A stretch of DNA of 64,000 bases from Dehalococcoidia bacterium (GCA_030611085.1 JAUWQI010000002.1:37961-101960); one strand, 5' to 3'. Shown: positions 2,728 through 45,730, counted from the stretch's first letter. Translations and numbers: made by a program. The notes: generated from the letters alone by a model not told the origin.

Positions 2728-3960
2728 ATGCCCAAGGTTTATTTTATAGATGTTACAAATCGCGACGGCGTTCAAACTGCGCGTCTTGGCCTGTCTAAAC
2801 TGGAAAAGACTATGATAAATGTGTATCTCAGTGAGATGGGCGTCTTTCAGTCTGAATTCGGTTTCCCTACGACAAGGCACGAATCCCTTTATCTTCAAGC
2901 TAACTTAGAGCTAGCTAAAATGGGGGTGTTACAGCCTATTCGTTTGGAAGGGTGGATAAGGGCAACTGTTGGCGATGTGGAAACAGCTTTCAGTCTCGTT
3001 CCTGATATTAAGCATCTTAATCTATCCATCTCTACATCGGACCAGATGCTTAGCAGCAAGTTGAAGAAGGGGAGAGAGGACATAACAAAAATGATGATTG
3101 ATGCTGTGGAAGCTGCTCGAGCTCATGGGGCTGAAAGCATAGGTGTAAATGCTGAAGATGCCTCTAGAACAGGCCTGGAATTCTTAATTAAATTTGCCTC
3201 GGCAGCTAAGGAACACGGCGTCCAGAGGTTTAGATACTGTGATACTCTTGGCTATGACAACCCTTTTACTATCTATGAAACCGTCAAATCCCTGGCGGAG
3301 AATGTAGGAATTCCTATTGAGCCTCATTGTCATGGCGACCTGGGGATGGCTGTTGCTAATTCCGTTGCCGCGGCAAAAGGAGCCATAGATGGTGGGCAGG
3401 ATGCTTATATTAATACCACAATCAATGGGATTGGGGAGCGAGCGGGCAATGCCGACCTTGTAGCAACGGTCCTGGCCATTACTAAATCTAAAGGGTTTGC
3501 CGAAAAATATGAGCTAGGAGCCCCGATTGACTTGACAAAGGCATGGAAAATAAGCAAATTTGCCAGTTATGCCTTTGGAATTCCTATTCCCATAAACCAT
3601 CCCGGTGTTGGAGCTAATGCCTTTGCTCACGCCTCTGGCATTCACGCTGACGGTGTATTGAAAGACCCCGAGAACTATGAACTATATGGTTTCAACGAAT
3701 TAGGTAGGGGTGAGCCAGAGACTGTTGAGAGCGGCAGAGAAATATGCTCCGGGGAGTATAGTGGGATAGCTGGTTTCAGACATATAATGGGGCAGATGGA
3801 GGTATCCTTCAAGGACGCCGACGAGGCACGGGAAGTCCTGGAACTGGAAAGATATGCTAATGTTGAGGCACAAAAACCGCTCGTTGAGGACGAACTGCTC
3901 TTTATCGCCAAGTATCCTCAGATTGCAAGAAAGCTCCTAACGCTGACGCCGCTAGAATAA
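2728..3960 (+). CDS. Homocitrate/isopropylmalate/citramalate synthase family enzyme without C-terminal regulatory domain; candidate Re-face citrate synthase
   Basis: 410 aa. N-terminus YFIDVTNRDGVQ and later HCHGDLGMAVANS, INGIGERAGNA are DRE-TIM HMGL-like motifs. The gene lies next to aconitase-type and isocitrate dehydrogenase genes. Confidence 0.75.
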   Translation: MPKVYFIDVTNRDGVQTARLGLSKLEKTMINVYLSEMGVFQSEFGFPTTRHESLYLQANLELAKMGVLQPIRLEGWIRATVGDVETAFSLVPDIKHLNLSISTSDQMLSSKLKKGREDITKMMIDAVEAARAHGAESIGVNAEDASRTGLEFLIKFASAAKEHGVQRFRYCDTLGYDNPFTIYETVKSLAENVGIPIEPHCHGDLGMAVANSVAAAKGAIDGGQDAYINTTINGIGERAGNADLVATVLAITKSKGFAEKYELGAPIDLTKAWKISKFASYAFGIPIPINHPGVGANAFAHASGIHADGVLKDPENYELYGFNELGRGEPETVESGREICSGEYSGIAGFRHIMGQMEVSFKDADEAREVLELERYANVEAQKPLVEDELLFIAKYPQIARKLLTLTPLE

Positions 3961-5401: not shown

Positions 5402-5941
5402 ATGAAGATGCCTTATTCAGTGCTCAAAGGCAAAGCTATTAAGCTAGGTGACGGTGTTTCCACGGATGATATTATCTCTGGCAGGTTTGCTCATTTAAGG
5501 AGCAACTTACCTGAGCTTGCCAGGCACACCTTAGAGGATGCTATGCCTTCATTCGTCTCCAGAGTGAAGCCCGGTGATTTCCTGGTTGCCGGCAAGAACT
5601 TTGGCTTAGGCTCTAGCAGGGAGCATGCTCCCGTGGTAGTCAAGATGTCGGGAATAAGCGCTATTTTAGCTAAATCGGTAGCTCGTATTTTCTTTAGAAA
5701 TGCCATAAATCAAGGAATGCCGGTGTTAGTATGTGACACCGATAAAATTAGCGATAATGACGATTTGGAGATAGATTTAACTAATGGAGTGGTTGCTAAC
5801 TTGACTTCCGGCGTCAAGATAGACTGTGGCAAGATGTCGCCATTAGCCATTTCTATCCTCAAAGAAGGTGGGCTCATCCCCTATATAAAAAAGCACAAGG
5901 ATTTCGTCATCACACATTCCTCTGAACCCTATACCTATTAA
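5402..5941 (+). CDS. Aconitase-family hydro-lyase small subunit (LeuD/HacB type)
   Basis: 179 aa; GKNFGLGSSREHAP and ARIFFRNAINQG swivel-domain motifs. Confidence 0.8.
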   Translation: MKMPYSVLKGKAIKLGDGVSTDDIISGRFAHLRSNLPELARHTLEDAMPSFVSRVKPGDFLVAGKNFGLGSSREHAPVVVKMSGISAILAKSVARIFFRNAINQGMPVLVCDTDKISDNDDLEIDLTNGVVANLTSGVKIDCGKMSPLAISILKEGGLIPYIKKHKDFVITHSSEPYTY

Positions 5942-35893: not shown

Positions 35894-36922
35894 TCAACAG
35901 ACAATAACCCTTAGTCCTTCTGTGTAGGGCCCCCTTATTATGCCCTCCTCAGTGATGATAGCGCTTATGTAGTTATAGGGAGTGATGTCAAAAGCAGGAT
36001 TGGCTGCTTTTATGCCTTTCGGGGCAATGGGCACTCCGTGAATATGAGTTACTTCTTCAGGATTCCGCTCCTCTATGGGAATTTTTGCCCCTGAACTTAG
36101 GGAAAGGTCAATGGTGCTGATAGGAGCAGCTACATAAAAGGGGATGTTATTCTCCTTAGCCAATACTGCCAGAGTATAGGTGCCAATCTTATTGGCAACA
36201 TCACCATTGCCAGCAATCCTATCAGCGCCAACGATGATACAATTGATTTTGCCCTGATTCATAAAATAGCCCGCCATAGAATCAGTAATCAAAGTTACTG
36301 AGATATCAGCTTGCTGTAGTTCCCACACAGTGAGACTGGCTCCTTGAAGAAGAGGGCGAGTCTCCGTAGCAATTACGCTTAATCGCTTTCCTTGTTCTTT
36401 GGCAGCTTTGATTACACCTAAAGCAGTGCCATACCCTGCAGTGGCTAAAGGGCCAGCATTGCAATGAGTAAGAATAGTAAAGCCATCTTCGATAAGATCA
36501 GCTCCTAATTGGCTGAGACGCCTGGTTGCTTCTATTTCTTCCTGGTAGATTTGCTTTGCCTCATCGATAACTCTCCTTTTTATTTCAGGAATGCTGTCAC
36601 CTATAGCTGCCTCCTTTATTCTGTTAATAGCCTGGAAGAGGTTGACAGCAGTGGGCCTGGTAGCAGCAAAAGTTTGCATTATTTGCTCTAGCTTAACGAG
36701 GAATTCCTCCTTATTCGCTGTGGTTATATCCTGTGCTCCTAGAGCTATCCCATAAGCAGCAGCAATGCCTATAACTGGCGCCCCCCGAATTTTCATCTCC
36801 GTAATAGCTAAAGCCACATCGCGGTAATCGCTCAAGTCAATAAAGCTTTGCTCCCAGGGAAGCTTGCTCTGGTCCAGTATCCTTAGCCTGTTGCCAAGCC
36901 ATTCTATTGCTTCAAGTGCCAT
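35894..36922 (-). CDS. mtnA: Methylthioribose-1-phosphate isomerase (eIF-2B family)
   Basis: 342 aa; LRILDQSKLP, IRGAPVIGIAAAYG, THCNAGPLATAGYGTALGVI, GADRIAGNGDVANKIGTY. Confidence 0.85.
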   Translation of the reverse strand: MALEAIEWLGNRLRILDQSKLPWEQSFIDLSDYRDVALAITEMKIRGAPVIGIAAAYGIALGAQDITTANKEEFLVKLEQIMQTFAATRPTAVNLFQAINRIKEAAIGDSIPEIKRRVIDEAKQIYQEEIEATRRLSQLGADLIEDGFTILTHCNAGPLATAGYGTALGVIKAAKEQGKRLSVIATETRPLLQGASLTVWELQQADISVTLITDSMAGYFMNQGKINCIIVGADRIAGNGDVANKIGTYTLAVLAKENNIPFYVAAPISTIDLSLSSGAKIPIEERNPEEVTHIHGVPIAPKGIKAANPAFDITPYNYISAIITEEGIIRGPYTEGLRVIVC

Positions 36923-38117: not shown

Positions 38118-38193
38118 GGGCGATTAGCTCAGTGGTGAGAGCGCTTGCTTCACACGCAAGAGGTCACTGGTTCAAATCCAGTATCGCCCACCA
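38118..38193 (+). tRNA. tRNA-Val (anticodon CAC), CCA encoded
   Basis: gggcgat acceptor, anticodon arm cttgc-ttCACac-gcaag, GGTTCAAATCC. Confidence 0.9.
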
Positions 38194-38225
38194 TAAACTA
38201 TATAATAATACAGGGAGGCTAATAA

Positions 38226-38603
38226 ATGGCTGAAGACAGAGGTGGCTTACTTAGTGCTGGCGGAATCCTGAGTATAATAGTGGGAGCTTCTGAACTAATC
38301 GGAGGGGGAGCATTAGTAGCCCTATTTGCCATGGATATCGCAGTTCCCCCATTCCCGGGTTTCCCAGGCTTTGGAGTTGGCCTTAGTATGGCTCTAGTCA
38401 CAACTCGGCTGATTATTGTAGGAGCTGCCCTTGTTGTGCTGGGCATAGTAGCTATAGCTGGTGGCATATCGGCTATAAGAAGGAGCAGTTTGGGATTATC
38501 TTTAGCGGGAGCTATTTGTGCCCTTCTTCCCATCAATGTCCTGGGAATACTGGCGGTTATTTTTGTCTCCCTGGCAAAGGGAGAATTTGAGGCGGAAGAA
38601 TAA
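38226..38603 (+). CDS. Small hydrophobic membrane protein (about 4 TM) embedded in the tRNA cluster
   Basis: 125 aa, Gly/Ala/Ile/Leu-rich TM segments, AGGGAGG RBS about 9 nt upstream of the ATG. No family recognised. Confidence 0.5.
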   Translation: MAEDRGGLLSAGGILSIIVGASELIGGGALVALFAMDIAVPPFPGFPGFGVGLSMALVTTRLIIVGAALVVLGIVAIAGGISAIRRSSLGLSLAGAICALLPINVLGILAVIFVSLAKGEFEAEE

Positions 38604-38605
38604 AA

Positions 38606-38691
38606 GCCGAAGTGGCGGAAAGGCAGACGCGCTACGTTCAGGGCGTAGTGTCCTTAAGGACGTGAGGGTTCAAATCCCTCCTTCGGCACCA
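38606..38691 (+). tRNA. tRNA-Leu (anticodon CAG), long variable arm, CCA encoded
   Basis: Close to E. coli tRNA-Leu(CAG) architecture: gccgaag acceptor, ctacg-ttCAGgg-cgtag, variable arm tgtccttaaggacg. Confidence 0.85.
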
Positions 38692-38692
38692 T

Positions 38693-38769
38693 GCGCCTGT
38701 GGCTCAGTAGGATAGAGCGCAGCCCTGCGGAGGCTGAGGTCGCGGGTTCGAATCCCGCCAGGCGTACCA
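38693..38769 (+). tRNA. tRNA-Arg (anticodon GCG), CCA encoded
   Basis: Acceptor gcgcctg/caggcgt, anticodon arm cagcc-ctGCGga-ggctg, GGTTCGAATCC. Confidence 0.8.
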
Positions 38770-38770
38770 T

Positions 38771-38843
38771 GGGCGGTTAGCTCAGTGGTTAGAGCACCAG
38801 TTTTACACACTGGGGGTCAGAGGTTCAAGTCCTCTACCGCCCA
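38771..38843 (+). tRNA. tRNA-Val (anticodon TAC), no CCA
   Basis: gggcggt acceptor, ccagt-ttTACac-actgg, GGTTCAAGTCC. Confidence 0.85.
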
Positions 38844-39066
38844 CTTTTAGCTGAGTTCAGGCCATTCGTTGTAGCTGCCGAAGGTAACCTTCTATGTAAT
38901 CTTTGACCTCATTTGCTGGTTGGTAAATAGGGGTGTGATATCTCGGCACTACCAATGATATAAACATTTTCCCAGATGCGAAAAGGCCTGGACATCTGCT
39001 ATTTTTGCGGTTGCGGAGAGCTATTCACGAGATTTGAGAGGGCACAAGCGGGCAGCCGGGACGCCA

Positions 39067-39342: not shown

Positions 39343-39464
39343 TTGAACCTCCTCCACATTTATATTTATTTGAAAAGCTCAGCCTAAGCCCGCTTGTACC
39401 TCCAATTGACATAGCTAGATTTCTGGCTTCTTGTAAAAATTATAGCACGTAAACTCTAGCTAGC

Positions 39465-39938
39465 TCAATCAAAAGACACCCTTTCCTCTAAAAGCTCCCT
39501 TTCCCTGGCTCTCATTCGCTTTTCCTCTTCTGGTTGCTCGTGGTCATAGCCTAGAAGGTGAAGTATCCCATGGATAATCAGCAGTGCCAGCTCTTTATCA
39601 ATGGAATGTCCTTGTTCCTTGGCTTGCTCCACCGCTTGAGGGTAAGAGATGATTACCTCTCCGAGACGAAGTACGCCATCGGGAGGGAGGGCGAAGGAAG
39701 AATCGGCTTCCTTTTGAGGAAGCATATAAAACGCAAGCACATCCGTAGGCTCATCCACACTGCGGTAATCCCGATTGAGCCTTTGCACCGTCTCGGAATC
39801 GGTGAAAACCAGGCTCACTTCATAGGGAGGAGCTACACCTTCAGCCCTAAGAACCTGCTGAGCTACCTTTCTCACCCAGTCCTCATCAACTAAACCCCGA
39901 AATTTTTCCTCAACAGAAAGTCCAATTTCTTCTAACAT
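39465..39938 (-). CDS. ybeY: Endoribonuclease YbeY (rRNA maturation)
   Basis: 157 aa; HGILHLLGYDH zinc motif, TDVLAF. Confidence 0.9.
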   Translation of the reverse strand: MLEEIGLSVEEKFRGLVDEDWVRKVAQQVLRAEGVAPPYEVSLVFTDSETVQRLNRDYRSVDEPTDVLAFYMLPQKEADSSFALPPDGVLRLGEVIISYPQAVEQAKEQGHSIDKELALLIIHGILHLLGYDHEQPEEEKRMRARERELLEERVSFD

Positions 39939-40063
39939 GGCAAAATCTTATCTTAAGTATACACGACACTGTAGCCAAGGGAGCAAGGTCTCCCAAAGGG
40001 GAAGAGGGCATAAGCCTGTATCGTATATACTATGTTATATGAAGTGGCGTCTTTATTTGTCCT

Positions 40064-40585
40064 TCACTTGAATGGAGGTATATCAACGGGTAAGCCAACT
40101 CTCATAAAGAATCTCGCGAAAGCTTGGGATAAATGTTCTCTATACGGGGGCAATAAGCGTAGCCTTCTTCCCCTTTTTCTAGCTAACTCGAGAGTAGAAT
40201 CAAAAGGGACGCTATATACAGAACGAAAATCGACTACTAGATAGTCTGTCTTAAATCCATCGATTTCACATTTGTTTAATAGATGATACCCAGGCAAATA
40301 ACCTCGCCTCAAGGCTTCTTTCCCCTCTCTACTTCTATAATAGGAGTTCTCTTCTTCGAATTCCTCTAGTGACCACAGAGGACAAACCAGAACTAAATCT
40401 ATTTTTCTTTGCTCAAGGTCACATGATTGACTCATGACAACAACATCGTATTCGATAACATCTGCAGAGACCTTCCCAGGTTCTATTGCCAGAGGTGGAA
40501 TCACCACTGGGCACGAATTAATGAAATCTCCCTGTAGAAGAGTTTCCTTGCCATCCACAATTATATACCACGGATATTCTTCCAT
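40064..40585 (-). CDS. Hypothetical protein (173 aa), third gene of the AT-rich cassette
   Basis: Clean ORF co-directional with the two upstream genes. Segments VVVMSQSCDLEQ, GYLPGYHLL and a basic tail ARKRGRRLRLLPPYREHL. No family recognised. Confidence 0.6.
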   Translation of the reverse strand: MEEYPWYIIVDGKETLLQGDFINSCPVVIPPLAIEPGKVSADVIEYDVVVMSQSCDLEQRKIDLVLVCPLWSLEEFEEENSYYRSREGKEALRRGYLPGYHLLNKCEIDGFKTDYLVVDFRSVYSVPFDSTLELARKRGRRLRLLPPYREHLSQAFARFFMRVGLPVDIPPFK

Positions 40586-40615
40586 GCTTTTCGCCTTTTT
40601 GATAGTGTATTAAGC

Positions 40616-41017
40616 CTAAATCCATTCTAGCTCAACAAACCTGGGCTCTGCTTTTTTGATACTCTTTACTTCTAACTCTATAGCATACCGCCTTCTTGGG
40701 GGCATCCGAACAACAAAATCATGTTCTAACATCTCATTTATTATATCTTCTTCCGACAGTACTTCGGTTACGTAGGTTTCACTCATCGGCTCAAAATAAG
40801 GATGCACCGAAGATAAATCAATTTCGAATGATGGCAGCAAGCTTCGATAGAAAAAAGGTTGCCTAGGCAATTCCTGTCTTATTGAAACAAAGAAGGGCCA
40901 ATCCAACATTTCACTTATATTATCAGTTTCTTCTTTCCTCGAGCTCCCTGTGAATGCATGTGGGGTTGGATACTCTTTAGTCATTATATTCGGAGATGTT
41001 ATTTTATCTAACAACAT
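40616..41017 (-). CDS. Hypothetical protein (133 aa), second gene of the cassette
   Basis: ATG overlaps the upstream stop (TAATG at 41019-41015). Acidic/aromatic composition, no recognisable motif. Confidence 0.55.
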   Translation of the reverse strand: MLLDKITSPNIMTKEYPTPHAFTGSSRKEETDNISEMLDWPFFVSIRQELPRQPFFYRSLLPSFEIDLSSVHPYFEPMSETYVTEVLSEEDIINEMLEHDFVVRMPPRRRYAIELEVKSIKKAEPRFVELEWI

Positions 41018-41790
41018 TATTCAAACCTCCTTGACAATTCCCCTTCTATTAGTTTAAAGAACCAGTCATCCGTCAAATTGTGTGCCTCTTTTGCCCAATC
41101 AGCAATCTCGTTTTGAACCTTGGGCACATCTTCCGAAACAGATTCAACCATTGTTTCCCATATTAAAGCATCAGATTCTTTCCTTTTACCTCGGACAAAT
41201 CTTAGATGGATTGCTCCTTTAGGTTCTGCAGAGGCAAAAGAGAACCTCAAATCGAGACCTAAAGGAGACTTTTCTACTCTTGTATCTTCAAATAGTTTCT
41301 GGTATAACTTTATCTCCATCTTCACTTGCTCTTTTAAAAAAGTGAATATGTCATCTTTTTCAAAATCAAAAGCAATAGCGTCAATATAACGTAACAACAA
41401 TCTATTAACTGTCAGATTGCTTTTCGATTCGGGATATACTTCAAAGAGGATATTGAAAGTTTGAATGATTCTTTTTTCAAAGTCTTCCCATATATATCCA
41501 TCTGTATCGTTAACAGTAATAATTCCAGGTCCTATTTGAACAAGTGGCCATTTATCTTTACCTTTTCTAAACCGATGCTGCACTATATAGCCTGCAATTT
41601 CATCTGGCATAGTGGCTGCAGGTAATTGCTCATGGAAAGGATACTCATCGTTGAGCTTGTCATATAATCTGCCGATGAGTAATTTGTAGTGAGGGTCTAC
41701 TTTTATGCCAGGTGCAGATTCTTGGAGATTCCACCTCAACTCGAATATAGCCTCTACGAGAGGTTTATTTTTTAAGATTTTCTTCGTCAT
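41017..41790 (-). CDS. TIGR04255-like uncharacterised protein (257 aa), first gene of the cassette
   Basis: KNKPLVEAIFELRW near the N-terminus and LLLRYIDAI mid-protein are what I recall for family TIGR04255. GGAGG RBS 7 nt before the ATG. Confidence 0.5.
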   Translation of the reverse strand: MTKKILKNKPLVEAIFELRWNLQESAPGIKVDPHYKLLIGRLYDKLNDEYPFHEQLPAATMPDEIAGYIVQHRFRKGKDKWPLVQIGPGIITVNDTDGYIWEDFEKRIIQTFNILFEVYPESKSNLTVNRLLLRYIDAIAFDFEKDDIFTFLKEQVKMEIKLYQKLFEDTRVEKSPLGLDLRFSFASAEPKGAIHLRFVRGKRKESDALIWETMVESVSEDVPKVQNEIADWAKEAHNLTDDWFFKLIEGELSRRFE

Positions 41791-41906
41791 CTTCTAACCT
41801 CCATATCCTTTCTAAAAGCACCATTTCATATAACTCCAGTATATACCAAATTTCCTTTCGCTCCTAGAAGGGTGCCAACTTTTAATTTCTTCCTTGCTAC
41901 ATCAAC

Positions 41907-41935
41907 ATTATACTTCTTTGACTGTTTTTGTTGAA
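41907..41935 (-). promoter_or_regulatory. Candidate promoter TTCAAC-N17-TATAAT for the three-gene cassette
   Basis: Perfect -10 and a 17-nt spacer, about 115 nt upstream of ATG 41790. Confidence 0.35.
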
Positions 41936-42002
41936 GCCTTTAAATAGGATATTTAATTTAGGGCATTTAATTGTCACCTCAAACGGCAATGAAGGGTATC
42001 TA

Positions 42003-42058
42003 GCTTGCTTCGCTTCCCCTTCACTAAGTTCAGGGCTTTGGCTCACCGCAATGACAGG
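42003..42058. repeat. R1 repeat
   Basis: gcttgcttcgcttccccttcactaagttcagggctttggctcaccgcaatgacagg. Confidence 0.75.
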
Positions 42059-42116
42059 CGAGATTACCAATCATGCAGACTTTATATGTTGTTGAATAGC
42101 TAGTAAAATAACACTG

Positions 42117-44666
42117 ATGGCAGTAACACCTCTCAGGCGGCAGTATCTCAGGGTTAAGCAGAGGTATCCCGAGGCAATAGTCTTCTTTCGGCTGGGGGAT
42201 TTTTATGAGACCTTCGATGAGGATGCCAAGGTCGCTTCTAAGGAACTAGACATCGTTTTAACCTCCCGTGGGATGGACGAGGGGCATAAAGTGCCCATGG
42301 CGGGAATACCTCACCATGCTCTGGATAACTATCTGTCTAAGCTCATCACTCGAGGCCATAAAGTAGCCATTTGTGAGCAACTCAGCCCTCCGGGCAAAGG
42401 GCTGGTGGATAGGGATGTCATTCGAGTGGTGACGCCGGGGACGGTGGTTGAGCCTAACCTGCTTGAGAGCAAGAAGAATAACTATCTGGTCAGCCTGGTT
42501 GTTGAAGATGAGAAAGCAGGGATTGCTTATATTGATATAACCACGAGTGAGTTTGCTACCACTCAGCTTCCTGGCGACCAAATTCTCCCCGAATTGGAGC
42601 GACTTCAGCCCAGCGAGCTTCTCATCCCAGAGAATGTTGATGACCAGAGTCAATTGCCCTTTACTATCACCAAGCTTGATGATTACTGGTTTGATTTAGA
42701 GACAGCCCAGGAAACCTTGCTGGAACATTTCAGCGTGGCTACTCTGGAAGGCTATGGCTGCGCCCGTTTGCCTTTGGCTATAAGGGCTGCCGGCTCATTA
42801 GTCCATTATCTCACCGAAACCCAAAAGGCAGCTTTGCTTCAGTTGACTACCCTTGCTACCTACTCCACGGATTCCTTCATGATTCTCGATGGCCAGACAT
42901 GTCGTAATCTGGAGCTTTTTCAAGGCGGTAGGTGGGGAGAGACCGATAACTCCCTCCTCTCTATTATTGACTTAACCAGGACAGCTATGGGTGGCAGGCT
43001 AATTAAAAATTGGCTAGGACATCCTCTCCTCGATATCGCCGAGCTGAATAAAAGGCAAGAATCGGTTGATTGGTTTTATCACAATAGTCTGGCTCGCCAG
43101 AAAGTTATGTCCCTTTTAGCCGATGTCGCTGATTTAGAGCGGTTGGTCAACCGGGTGGGAAGTGGCAAAGTTATGCCCCGAGAACTGATAACGCTTCAGG
43201 AGAGCTTGGAGAAAATACCTGAGCTAAGGGAGGTAATGGAAGTCGGGAGCTTTGTAGATTGGCTGAGAGGTGAACTGAAACCCTGCCCTGATATTGTGGA
43301 GGTAATTGCGCAAGCCATCGCTGATGAGCCGGGAAATTTGGAGCAAGGTGGTGTAATAAGGGAAGGTTTCTCCACTGAACTGGATGAGCTTCGCCGTAGC
43401 TCAAAGGAGACAAAACAATATCTAGCCAGTCTGGAGCACAGAGAAAGGCAGCGCACGGGGATTAAATCCTTAAAAGTAGGCTACAACCGGGTATTTGGCT
43501 ATTATATTGAGGTATCCCGGGCTAATCTTAGCCTGGTTCCCTCCGACTATATTCGTAAGCAGACTTTAGCCGAGGCGGAAAGATTCTTCACCCCCGAACT
43601 CAAAGAATATGAATCTTCCATTCTAGCTTCACAAGAGAGAATTGCAGAATTGGAAACCGCCATCTTCCGCCAGGTTTGTCAGCAGATAAGCGCTGCTGGC
43701 GAGCAGATTTTGGCCACCGCCAGAACCATTGCTCAAATTGATGCTTTTTGCAGCCTTGCTGAAGTAGCAACAAAGTATAATTATGTTAAGCCAACGCTGA
43801 ACACGGAAGATGTCATAGAAATTAAAGGAGGACGCCACCCCGTGGTGGAGAGAAGCATAGGCAGCGATAGCTTCGTTCCTAACGATACTTATCTATGTAA
43901 CGAGGATAATCAACTCATCATACTCACAGGCCCCAATATGTCAGGAAAGTCTACCTATCTCAGGCAGGTAGCCTTAATTATTCTGCTCGCTCAGATTGGA
44001 AGCTTTGTTCCCGCCGATTCAGCGAATATCGGGGTTGTTGACCGCATCTTCACTCGAATCGGAGCCCAGGAGGATTTAGCTGCAGGTCAGTCCACTTTTA
44101 TGGTGGAGATGACCGAGACAGCAAACATTTTGCATAATGCCACTTCCCACTCTTTTATTATCTTAGATGAGATTGGGCGAGGTACAAGCACCTATGACGG
44201 GCTTTCCATCGCCTGGGCGGTAGCTGAATTCATCCATAGCTCACCCAAGCTCGGAGCGAAGACCCTTTTTGCCACTCATTACCACGAATTGGTGGATTTG
44301 GCCAATGCCTTGCCTCGGGTAAAAAACTTTAATGTAGCTGTGGCTGAGGAGGGAGATAAAGTTATCTTCTTACATAAAATTATCCCCGGAGGTGCTGATA
44401 GAAGCTACGGCATTCATGTAGCTCAGCTAGCTGGTTTGCCCAGGTCGGTAATTAGTCGAGCTCAGGAAGTTTTAGCCGAATTAGAAGGCCAGGCTTCCAG
44501 GAAAGGCAAAGTCTCTCGGCAGAAAGCCCGGTTTCAGCAGCTTCCACTTTTACCCAAAGACTCCTTATTGGCTGATGAGATTGCCAAACTCGATGTGGAT
44601 TCCCTGTCTCCTCTGGAGGCTATTACCAAGCTTTATCAGCTCAAGCAAATGACGCAGGAGAGATAA
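42117..44666 (+). CDS. mutS: DNA mismatch repair protein MutS
   Basis: 849 aa; TPLRRQY, FFRLGDFYETF, GPNMSGKSTYLRQ Walker A, ILDEIGRGTSTYDG, THYHEL. Confidence 0.95.
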   Translation: MAVTPLRRQYLRVKQRYPEAIVFFRLGDFYETFDEDAKVASKELDIVLTSRGMDEGHKVPMAGIPHHALDNYLSKLITRGHKVAICEQLSPPGKGLVDRDVIRVVTPGTVVEPNLLESKKNNYLVSLVVEDEKAGIAYIDITTSEFATTQLPGDQILPELERLQPSELLIPENVDDQSQLPFTITKLDDYWFDLETAQETLLEHFSVATLEGYGCARLPLAIRAAGSLVHYLTETQKAALLQLTTLATYSTDSFMILDGQTCRNLELFQGGRWGETDNSLLSIIDLTRTAMGGRLIKNWLGHPLLDIAELNKRQESVDWFYHNSLARQKVMSLLADVADLERLVNRVGSGKVMPRELITLQESLEKIPELREVMEVGSFVDWLRGELKPCPDIVEVIAQAIADEPGNLEQGGVIREGFSTELDELRRSSKETKQYLASLEHRERQRTGIKSLKVGYNRVFGYYIEVSRANLSLVPSDYIRKQTLAEAERFFTPELKEYESSILASQERIAELETAIFRQVCQQISAAGEQILATARTIAQIDAFCSLAEVATKYNYVKPTLNTEDVIEIKGGRHPVVERSIGSDSFVPNDTYLCNEDNQLIILTGPNMSGKSTYLRQVALIILLAQIGSFVPADSANIGVVDRIFTRIGAQEDLAAGQSTFMVEMTETANILHNATSHSFIILDEIGRGTSTYDGLSIAWAVAEFIHSSPKLGAKTLFATHYHELVDLANALPRVKNFNVAVAEEGDKVIFLHKIIPGGADRSYGIHVAQLAGLPRSVISRAQEVLAELEGQASRKGKVSRQKARFQQLPLLPKDSLLADEIAKLDVDSLSPLEAITKLYQLKQMTQER

Positions 44667-44680
44667 AAGGGAAAACCTAG

Positions 44681-45730
44681 CTATATTTCCCCCTTCTTAT
44701 TCTCAAAATATCTATTTATAGCAGCTGGTGGATAGATTCCTCTATCAGTGATAATGGCATCTATAAATTTTGGAGGAGTGCTGTCAAAAGCAGGGTAGAA
44801 GCCTTTAACGCCCTCAGGGGCAATTCTTTCACCTGGCCCGCAAAGCAATTCTTCAGGATTGCGAATTTCTATCTCAGCATCCTTATATGTCAATGTTTTG
44901 GAATCCGGCCCCGCACCGAAGCAATAAAAGGGGATATTATGCTCATGAGCAGCAATGGCAATTTGATAAGTCCCTATCTTGTTAGTGACCCCTCCGTCCA
45001 TAGATACTCGATCAGCCCCAACAAAGACCTTGTTTATCAATCCTTGTTGCATGCAGTAAGCAGGCATGTTATCTGCTATAAGGGTAACATCAAATCCACC
45101 TTGCTTTAGAACAAAAGAAGTTAGACGCGCCCCTTGCATATATGGCCTGGTCTCAGTGCAAAAAAATTTCACTTTCTTGCCCTCTTCTCTTGCGTAATAA
45201 CCTGTGAAATATATTATTGGCCCAGCATAACAATGGGTTAAAACTGTGTCGTTATCCCTTACCAGTTGCGATGCATACTGGCCTACCTTTCGATAACTTT
45301 CCTCCATCTTATCAACCCGTGTAATCACTGCCCTTTTAATTACTTCGAAGGGCTCCTCCCCTGTTTCTATAGCATTATTTGCTTCTGCACCTAATCTATC
45401 GACGAAATAATGGAGTGACGATTGTGTCGGTCTCGTGTCCTTTATTCTTTCAATTGCCTTGGTAAGATAAGCTCGCATTGCTTTTTTATCCTTATCCCTT
45501 GCCTCATAAGCGGCTATAAGGATTCCATATCCTCCAGCAATGGAAACCCCTTCACTTTGAGTAACCATCTTTTCTATGGCGATTGCAACTCCTTCGTAGT
45601 TATGACACCGGTAATATTCCACTCTTCTGGGTAGCAATCGTCGATCTAATATCACAACCTGCCCCTTTTCTTCATCGAAAAATATGTTCTTATGAAGATC
45701 AATTAGAATAGGTACTTTATCTCCAGGCAT
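44681..45730 (-). CDS. eIF-2B/MtnA-family isomerase paralog (divergent; substrate unknown)
   Basis: 349 aa; THCYAGP, CTETRPYMQGARLT, GADRVSMDGGVTNKIGTY; but the N-terminal segment is VTQSEGVSIAGGYG instead of IRGAP.IG.AAAYG. Confidence 0.7.
   Translation of the reverse strand: MPGDKVPILIDLHKNIFFDEEKGQVVILDRRLLPRRVEYYRCHNYEGVAIAIEKMVTQSEGVSIAGGYGILIAAYEARDKDKKAMRAYLTKAIERIKDTRPTQSSLHYFVDRLGAEANNAIETGEEPFEVIKRAVITRVDKMEESYRKVGQYASQLVRDNDTVLTHCYAGPIIYFTGYYAREEGKKVKFFCTETRPYMQGARLTSFVLKQGGFDVTLIADNMPAYCMQQGLINKVFVGADRVSMDGGVTNKIGTYQIAIAAHEHNIPFYCFGAGPDSKTLTYKDAEIEIRNPEELLCGPGERIAPEGVKGFYPAFDSTPPKFIDAIITDRGIYPPAAINRYFENKKGEI

Follow-up and report, generated by a model that had tools for sequence, protein, structure and literature searches.

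The type II toxin-antitoxin systems MazEF, PemIK (Kid-Kis) and CcdAB couple a small upstream antitoxin gene to the gene of a barrel-fold toxin and are patchily distributed by horizontal transfer. Comparable features are found in three co-directional genes, P1, P2 and P3, which span 40064-41790 between ybeY and mutS in a 64,000-nucleotide (nt) stretch of Dehalococcoidia bacterium DNA (GCA_030611085.1 JAUWQI010000002.1:37961-101960), hereafter the window. With a confidence a little better than even, we read this trio as a horizontally mobile, tripartite toxin-antitoxin-like conflict module residing in a ybeY-mutS hot spot. Mobile toxin-antitoxin-like modules are known as a kind; the protein family, the three-part architecture, the docking peptide and the repeat-bounded unit reported here appear to be undescribed.

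The resemblance to MazEF, PemIK and CcdAB begins with gene order, a small antitoxin-like gene (P2) standing upstream of and coupled to that of a protein with a predicted MazF/CcdB barrel (P3). As in type II systems, the small genes are adjacent, coupled and co-occurring, a C-terminal motif of P2 lying upstream of P3 at 55 of 77 loci. In MazE the C-terminal segment of the antitoxin is the toxin-binding part, as it appears to be in P2, and the antitoxin N-terminus may be DNA-binding, as the RelB-like domain of cyanobacterial P2 suggests. The distribution is likewise patchy through horizontal transfer. Unlike the toxins of these systems, to which it has no detectable sequence similarity, P3 is about 60 amino acids longer, has different invariant residues and stays approximately 70% identical across domains; in addition a third gene, of family TIGR04255, is usually present with the pair, and P2 of the window is without a recognisable DNA-binding domain. 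Three co-transcribed genes are also characteristic of TAC systems (toxin, antitoxin, SecB-like chaperone), where the extra protein co-varies with an antitoxin extension as it does here with the N-terminal ~85 residues of P2. In TAC, however, the extension is C-terminal and the chaperone is encoded last, whereas P1 is encoded first and its model is of a TATA-binding protein (TBP)-like tandem-domain protein rather than a SecB-like one. A type III system (ToxIN / CptIN) was considered and rejected, as 39400-42200 contains no tandem repeats and has no Rfam match.

The P2-P3 pair and its partners

Homologues of P3 form more than 6000 clusters when grouped at 90% identity, and 2211 at the 50% level in an exhaustive search; counting one genome per species, they occur in at least 567 genomes of bacteria and archaea, with hosts that include Promethearchaeum syntrophicum MK-D1, Methanothrix, Kuenenia, Oscillatoria PCC 10802, Chloroflexota and Planctomycetota. 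The best 120 clusters are 69-92% identical and derive from Omnitrophota, Nitrospirota, Thermoplasmatota, Asgard archaea and others; the 150 best at the 50% level are mostly stand-alone proteins of about 165-220 residues. The original prediction, made from the window alone, had taken P2 and P3 for orphans. Neither indeed matches Pfam, NCBIfam or PADLOC at E <= 1, but a protein with so many relatives is no orphan. The sole library match of P3 is a weak one to phrog_4575 (E = 2.6e-4), and P2 has none among the PHROGs either. Sequence and profile searches of PDB sequences returned nothing relevant for P3 and nothing for P2, and an exact look-up of the window P3 in the contig index gave no match.

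Structure prediction for P3 with AlphaFold2 used an alignment shallow in diversity. The best model has a predicted local distance difference test (pLDDT) score of 75 and a predicted template-modelling (pTM) score of 0.67, and confidence is moderate at best because the other four models reach only about 41. Among its 25 best Foldseek matches in the PDB (probability 0.82-1.0, E = 2e-3 to 0.15, template-modelling (TM) score 0.34-0.45 by query and 0.49-0.63 by target), 23 are MazF/Kid-type toxins, with the type III toxin CptN at rank 23; CcdB follows at rank 46. Against BFVD, a set of predicted viral structures, three of the top four matches are named 'PemK-like protein'. The model thus makes a MazF/CcdB-like fold likely for P3, whereas membership of the MazF/CcdB family is unproven because sequence methods do not confirm the Foldseek matches.

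Conservation of P3 is concentrated at its C-terminus, where the last 33 residues (RLLPPYREHLSQAFARFFMRVGLPVDIPPFK) hardly vary even among proteins 50% identical overall and the columns are invariant or nearly so in sets of 121 and 44 diverse sequences. The ratio of non-synonymous to synonymous substitution rates (dN/dS) in this segment is 0.008-0.13, and since synonymous sites vary normally (proportion of synonymous differences, pS, 0.18-0.66) the constraint acts on the protein and not on the DNA. Invariant residues of P3 are C55, D56, E150, Q154 and R162. Over the whole genes, dN/dS against related cassettes is 0.08-0.18 for P1, 0.11-0.40 for P2 and 0.11-0.21 for P3; each gene is under purifying selection and is therefore real and constrained, P2 being the least constrained and fastest evolving.

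The variability of P2 leaves one constant region, a C-terminal motif of roughly 40 residues. In the window this reads E-H-D-f-v-V-R-M-P-P-x-R-R-Y-x-I-x-L-x-V-K-x-I-K-K-A-x-P-R-f-V-E, and the family consensus is E-[HY]-D-x-x-V-[RK]-M-P-P-x-[KR]-x-Y-x-V-x-x-x-V-K-x-I-x-K-A-x-P-x-I-V-x-P-E. Hidden Markov models were used to survey 77 P3 loci preceded by 1.4 kb or more of sequence (loci outside the window carry L numbers). The motif lies directly upstream of P3 at 55 of them, with gaps of -28 to +46 nt, while the rest of P2 varies, and its position suggests the segment that docks onto P3. At 43 of the 77 a TIGR04255-like gene is found 300-470 nt upstream of P3, always with room for a P2-sized gene, so the co-occurrence on which the original prediction depended is borne out.

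The sequence preceding the motif is modular. In cyanobacterial P2 the N-terminus is a RelB-like antitoxin domain (PF18506, E = 1e-9). A 373-residue RES-domain protein of Chloroflexia (L033:367-1488) and a 324-residue TPR protein of Planctomycetes (L047:5006-5980) both end in the P2 motif, and at L060:1776-2453 the first gene encodes a ThsB-like TIR protein (E = 5e-25). P2 linked to TIGR04255 has an N-terminal extension of ~85 residues that is not in the two-gene P2-P3 versions; these are kept across Methanothrix species, where P2 (70-96 residues) is little more than the motif, and are also found in Planctomycetes. A profile search with the motif, limited by its word index, gave only 22 matches, confirming the RelB-like fusions without revealing a wider repertoire. 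Several of the two-gene Methanothrix loci have downstream open reading frames (ORFs) in common and appear syntenic. A two-gene version in Nitrospirota (L010:4866-6836), a 106-residue P2-like protein with P3, apparently sits between fabG and acpP of the fab operon, the gene identities resting on sequence motifs only.

The retention of minimal pairs across Methanothrix marks P3 as the functional core, and a constant P2 C-terminus and P3 with an exchangeable third partner make up a combinatorial arrangement of the kind typically seen in toxin-antitoxin and conflict systems. Support for a conflict module also comes from the classic conflict domains, ThsB-like TIR and RES, in the partner slot. The same RES and TIR partners allow a reversed polarity, in which P3 and the P2 C-terminal peptide would be a conserved switch or sensor and the variable partner the real effector. 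Known effector domains do occupy the first-gene slot or the P2 N-terminus (TIR at L060, RES at L033), and the conservation of P3, far above that of typical toxins, resembles that of hub or regulator proteins. We nevertheless consider this arrangement fairly unlikely: the two-gene versions, with a P2 of 70-96 residues, offer no other effector and yet are kept in Methanothrix and Planctomycetes, the P3 model has a toxin-family fold, and TIGR04255 is without a catalytic signature, the TBP-like / helix-grip fold being typically a binding fold.

P1 matches NCBIfam TIGR04255 over positions 2-252 of the 252-position profile with 136 bits (cutoff 30; E = 1.9e-39), which agrees with the family named in the original prediction. 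Divergent P1 proteins at L048, L057, L059, L066, L070 and L078, missed by tblastn, pass the same profile and still stand upstream of divergent P2-P3 pairs, the first position being kept. No paper of the library searched mentions TIGR04255, and sequence searches of the PDB, with the single sequence and with a profile, returned nothing for P1. Its AlphaFold2 model has a pLDDT of 85.5 and a pTM of 0.84; Foldseek against the PDB matched it to TATA-binding proteins, S-adenosylmethionine (AdoMet) decarboxylase and Bet v1/START proteins (E about 1e-3, probability 0.9-0.97, TM 0.22-0.36), which suggests a tandem (pseudo-dimeric) TBP-like / helix-grip fold. The RnlA toxin has two TBP-like domains, the first of which is needed for RNA substrate binding (PMC8266594). 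RnlA-RnlB and LsoA-LsoB would in this respect be similar to the trio in combining tandem TBP-like domains with an RNase effector, and RnlA may by analogy be a precedent for P1 as a sensor or regulator. In RnlA, however, these domains are fused to a HEPN RNase, whereas here a separate P1 lies beside a predicted MazF-fold P3, and RnlA is not among the Foldseek matches of P1.

For the tripartite module our data are consistent with the following model. P3 would be the effector because of its toxin-type predicted fold and the persistence of minimal P2-P3 pairs, and its predicted MazF/PemK/CcdB-type barrel would most likely target RNA or otherwise arrest growth, with the near-invariant C-terminal helix contacting a universally conserved target or forming the active surface. 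P2 is antitoxin-like in being upstream, coupled and fastest evolving, with a constant motif behind a variable N-terminus that is RelB-like in one variant. It would act as a modular, neutralising adaptor whose ~40-residue C-terminal peptide docks on P3, and whose variable N-terminal part couples the P2-P3 pair to a third partner. In the window this partner would be P1, a candidate nucleic-acid- or ligand-binding sensor or regulator. Were P2 lost or sequestered, for example upon infection or loss of the cassette, P3 would be freed and toxic, and an anti-phage role of the module may be envisaged.

The toxin-antitoxin or abortive-infection role suggested by the original prediction is strengthened by the MazF/PemK/CcdB-like P3 model, the modular antitoxin-like P2 coupled upstream of P3, the TIR and RES partners, and a HepT-MNT pair at the same genomic site in a relative (see below). 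Several observations weigh against it. A search of PADLOC-DB v2 with P1, P2 and P3 gave no match at E <= 1. The P3 model is fragile, one of five AlphaFold2 models being confident; no PemK, CcdB or related model matches P3 in the Pfam and NCBIfam searches at E <= 1, hhalign of P3 against a five-sequence MazF alignment gave a probability of 0.8%, and a profile search of PDB sequences provides no link between P3 and MazF. The catalytic Arg and Thr of MazF are not evidently conserved in P3, where other residues are invariant, and ~70% identity between bacterial and archaeal P3 is unusually high for a toxin. No recognisable DNA-binding domain was found in the window P2 with Pfam and NCBIfam, and the fusion of a RES toxin domain to this motif at L033 fits poorly with P2 as a simple antitoxin. 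TM-scores between P1 and TBP are low, and the neighbours of P3 loci are mostly housekeeping genes rather than defence islands.

Insertion at the ybeY-mutS site and wider spread

Relatives of the ybeY-mutS region were recovered by a metagenome scan with the window MutS. In the close relative L120, whose MutS, YbeY and GYD protein are 79%, 77% and 81% identical to those of the window, ybeY and mutS are divergent neighbours about 76 nt apart (L120:4880-5010). This empty site shows that the trio was horizontally acquired by insertion between the two genes, as had been predicted. Other cargo lies there in further relatives: HepT (PF01934), MNT (PF01909) and a second nucleotidyltransferase upstream of mutS in L097 (MutS 83%; L097:1-2100), and genes of 436 and 72 codons, of unknown family, between ybeY and mutS in L098 (MutS 82%; L098:150-2010). 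The HepT ribonuclease and MNT nucleotidyltransferase are a known toxin-antitoxin pair. The intergenic site (window 39939-42116) is a cargo hot spot in this lineage. The L097 insertion is flanked by direct repeats (105 nt, 87%; 33 nt, 94%; 19 nt, 84%) at 535-759 and 1794-2088 that are copies of the promoter segment and the mutS 5' end, as if the target had been copied during insertion, or an attachment site within the 5' part of mutS had been used for integration. The ~1 kb preceding mutS in L099 contains no ORF above 61 codons.

Inspection of the locus agrees with the layout originally described, including the position, minus strand and length of all three ORFs (Table 1). P1 and P2 are coupled, the stop of the one and the start of the other having one base in common in TAATG; a 30-nt gap separates P2 from P3, and the GGAGG ribosome-binding site of P1 is kept across an alignment of 11 elements. 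The foreign composition is likewise upheld by calculation: the ~1.8-kb cassette has 38.4% G+C against 45.7% in the window and 48% in ybeY and mutS, placing it in the lowest 0.6% of 1801-nt windows, and G+C at third codon positions (GC3) of the trio is 0.34-0.37 compared with 0.446 +/- 0.043 in 40 long ORFs. The core-gene flanks and nearby tRNAs are also as stated, YbeY matching PF02130 and four tRNA genes lying at 38118-38844, 1.2 kb from the cassette, and no integrase or transposase was found near the cassette in the window.

Outside this site, copies of the cassette 70-87% identical at the DNA level occur in unrelated bacterial and archaeal contexts. The neighbourhoods of P3 loci differ in every case examined (between an APH-like kinase and an AAA kinase at L001, adjoining ispG at L086), and 145 genes flanking 37 loci comprise 187 Pfam families of which none is enriched, with no recurrent integrase or transposase. 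Toxin-antitoxin and defence genes are only sprinkled among these neighbours, so that the expectation of defence islands as the usual setting was not borne out. When the window cassette is compared with L086:2540-4249, synonymous divergence (dS) is uneven, 0.61 for P1, 0.29 for P2 and 0.25 for P3, which suggests recombination between cassettes and a mosaic origin.

Searches with P3 by tblastn against PLSDB plasmids and GenBank phages gave no match. Divergent P3 versions do occur on six IMG/VR contigs: terminase and portal genes follow directly on one, a second has a tail-tip protein and an endolysin nearby, and a third a large serine integrase. On phage contig L092:3382-9278 a divergent trio, consisting of a phrog_5464 / TIGR04255-like protein, a 97-codon ORF and a 185-residue P3-like protein, directly precedes the genes of the large terminase and the portal. 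A P1 homologue on a phage contig matches phrog_5464 with E = 1e-37. This family and phrog_4575, matched by P3, are both PHROGs of unknown function whose linkage is undescribed.

A lineage-specific housekeeping operon tied to ybeY (RNA maturation) or mutS (repair) might have been suspected from the position of the trio, which adjoins ybeY, is co-directional with it and probably uses the same promoter. The empty site of L120, together with variable contexts (neighbours that differ per genome, 187 Pfam families among 145 neighbouring proteins), effectively excludes such a role and leaves it a virtually negligible likelihood; close relatives have other cargo at the site, the composition is foreign and the family is also in phages.

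Transcription of the trio was originally attributed to a promoter of its own. A promoter-like site is present, in the form TCAACA-N16-TATAAT with 10 of 12 matches and pointing towards the cassette, although such matches are no commoner than in shuffled sequence (6 found, 6.8 expected). The ~100-nt segment 41838-41945 that contains it is homologous to sequence in L097 (two copies), L098 and L099, all without the trio, so the site is host sequence and not the cassette's own. It is probably the resident divergent (ybeY-side) promoter, from which the cassette would now be expressed. An outer second inverted repeat suspected by eye was not supported; part of it (GTATATAC...AAATTT) is common to relatives without the trio. 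A further inverted repeat of 26 nt (73% complementary) has one half in the cassette leader and ribosome-binding region (41794-41819) and the other in host sequence just before the promoter-like site (41936-41961), and it may be due to chance.

A unit bounded by inverted repeats

Alignment of the flanks of cassettes from different genomes reveals two conserved blocks, with the consensus GTTATATGAAATGGCGCCTTTA on the left and the reverse complement GTTATATGAAGTGGCG... on the right, which the original account of the unit had missed. In the window these are 22-nt arms, 82% complementary, with a score of 30, whereas 100 shuffles gave at most 24. The two arms occur together in the window, L086, L011 (Methanosarcinales), L012 (Aenigmatarchaeota), L029 (Syntrophoarchaeum), L030 and, more weakly, L007. 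These seven elements with 500-nt flanks were compared all against all by blastn (21 pairs). In 11 pairs homology starts at, or up to 2 nt from, the first left-arm base, and in another 5 it starts 11-18 nt outside this arm; on the right it stops 1 nt beyond the final base of the arm in 12 pairs. The transferred unit is 1.8 kb bounded by 22-bp inverted repeats, and it is as this unit that the module would move between genomes. Outside the right arm, the 3' tail is partly (to 39977) common to the L007 element, homology ending +57 nt beyond the arm.

Comparison of the arms themselves points to recognition by protein. The outer ten bases (GTTATATGAA) are nearly invariant in both arms, and five of the seven elements have A at position 11 of the left arm but G at that of the right. 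The arms vary independently, none of the seven elements containing compensatory changes between them, which argues for protein-recognised termini or operators and not an RNA helix. The repeats might act instead at the RNA or regulatory level, as a long-range stem between the 5' and 3' ends that would stabilise or process the tricistronic mRNA or as paired autoregulatory operators, for the likely transcript includes the left arm, 24-45 nt ahead of the ATG, and the right arm, 9-30 nt past the stop, and toxin-antitoxin operons are commonly autoregulated through palindromes. The absence of compensatory substitutions, with the A-C mismatch at position 11 in five of seven elements, makes the RNA-stem reading disfavoured. 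Conservation of the repeats in bacteria and archaea despite differing processing of double-stranded RNA is a further difficulty, no Rfam family matches, and DNA homology stopping at the arms is left unexplained; an RNA or regulatory function is overall very unlikely.

The alternative that the repeats are true transposon or recombination termini, whether of a passenger cassette mobilised in trans by an unlinked transposase or of an element whose ends are bound or transposed by a trio protein, has an appreciable minority chance. It concerns movement and is compatible with toxin-antitoxin cargo. The homology limits at the arms and the near-invariant outer 10 bp with a fixed, uncompensated arm difference both favour it, as do the resumption of host sequence within ~8 nt of the left arm in the window, the lack of a recurrent integrase or transposase among the surveyed neighbours, and a related left arm and leader before other cargo at the same site in L098. 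However, blast alignments naturally stop at conserved blocks, ~72 nt past the right arm on the ybeY side are likewise missing from the empty site, and both arms occur in only about 7 of some 25 close copies, distant copies having other repeats or none. Of the features of an insertion sequence or transposon, terminal repeats are present; a target-site duplication is not visible (six elements were free of direct repeats next to the arms), and P1, P2 and P3 have no transposase-like match in Pfam, NCBIfam or PHROGs and do not resemble known transposases. No cognate insertion sequence turned up, genome and metagenome collections not having been searched for one, and the two-gene, TIR and RES variants fit such an element poorly.

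Among described mobile elements, mobile insertion cassettes (MICs) and TIMEs are similar in having inverted repeats exactly at the limits of the unit, cargo inside and no transposase, but the trio differs from them in the lack of a visible target-site duplication and of a known cognate insertion sequence, and in repeats common to bacterial and archaeal copies. Integron cassettes are similar in their promoter-less cargo behind a resident promoter, in alternative cargo at one site and in commonly carrying toxin-antitoxin genes. Unlike them, the trio has its repeats at opposite ends and forms no array, and neither a 3' attC nor an integrase (intI / attI platform) is found.

A leader related to that of the trio is found in L098, where the sequence before the 436-codon cargo gene (L098:1800-1880, minus strand) resembles the left arm and ribosome-binding region: GGAAATTTGGTATAC-TAAA-GTTGTGCGAAATTTAG...GATATTGAGG-ATG, with GATATTGAGG-N8-ATG spacing. 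The left end may thus be common to cassettes with different cargo. An extension of this idea, unlikely in our view, is that the trio and perhaps the 436-residue cargo of L098 represent an unrecognised class of repeat-bounded cassettes, exchanged between bacteria and archaea with no integrase linked to them. Their 22-35-bp termini would be recognised by an unlinked recombinase or by their own proteins, such as a TBP-like P1 on TATA-like arms, and the toxin-antitoxin-like cargo would secure retention once inserted.

Repeats of other kinds accompany some copies. L006 is without the usual right arm and has a different, longer inverted repeat (3565-3588 / 5450-5473; 24 nt, 4 mismatches) whose halves stand 107 nt ahead of P1 and 32 nt past P3, and L037, L009 and L041 have flanking repeats of their own at similar positions. 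The Nitrospirota pair at L010 has a recognisable left arm (GTTATCTGAAATTGCA) and no right arm. An extra left arm in L023 was discarded as a chance match inside a 700-codon coding gene, and a scan of viral contigs for the arm pattern gave 18 single matches and none paired, which is about chance level by estimate rather than computation.

Two further features of the neighbourhood were noted. A 125-codon ORF (38226-38603) encoding a hydrophobic Gly/Ala-rich protein with no Pfam match lies between tRNA-Val (38118-38193) and a tRNA-Leu/Arg/Val cluster (38606-38844), and is likewise called in the near-identical contig L087. IF-2B / MtnA-family paralogues of 342 and 349 residues are encoded on the minus strand at 35894-36922 and 44681-45730, each ~3 kb from one end of the cassette.

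Table 1. Features of the cassette and its borders in the window
Feature	Position	Strand	Description
P1	41017..41790	minus	257-residue ORF, first gene of trio
P2	40616..41017	minus	133-residue ORF, second gene of trio
P3	40064..40585	minus	173-residue ORF, third gene of trio
P2 C-terminal motif	40619..40750	minus	residues 90-133, roughly 40 amino acids
P3 C-terminal segment	40067..40165	minus	residues 141-173, RxRLLPPYREHLSQAFARFFMRVGLPVDIPPFK
GGAGG ribosome-binding site	41798..41802	minus	7 nt before P1 ATG, inside conserved leader
Promoter-like TCAACA-N16-TATAAT	41934..41907	minus	10/12 matches, points towards cassette
Left arm	41813..41834		coding strand GTTATATGAAATGGTGCTTTTA; 45 to 24 nt before P1 ATG
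Right arm	40034..40055		coding strand TAAAGACGCCACTTCATATAAC; 9 to 30 nt after P3 stop
3' tail outside right arm	39962..40033		not in empty site; short G+C hairpins

Significance

P3 represents a very large unannotated family that extends over Asgard archaea, methanogens, anammox bacteria, Chloroflexota, Planctomycetota, cyanobacteria and some phages, and the ~70% identity kept between its bacterial and archaeal members suggests that its target is universally conserved. If the reading of the trio as a toxin-antitoxin-like module is true, P3 would be a new family of MazF-fold effectors, the P2 motif a portable docking peptide of ~40 residues, and the trio the first functional context for TIGR04255, with a toxin-antitoxin core tied combinatorially to TIR and RES effectors. 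The repeat-delimited unit provides a concrete handle on how toxin-antitoxin cassettes move between genomes.

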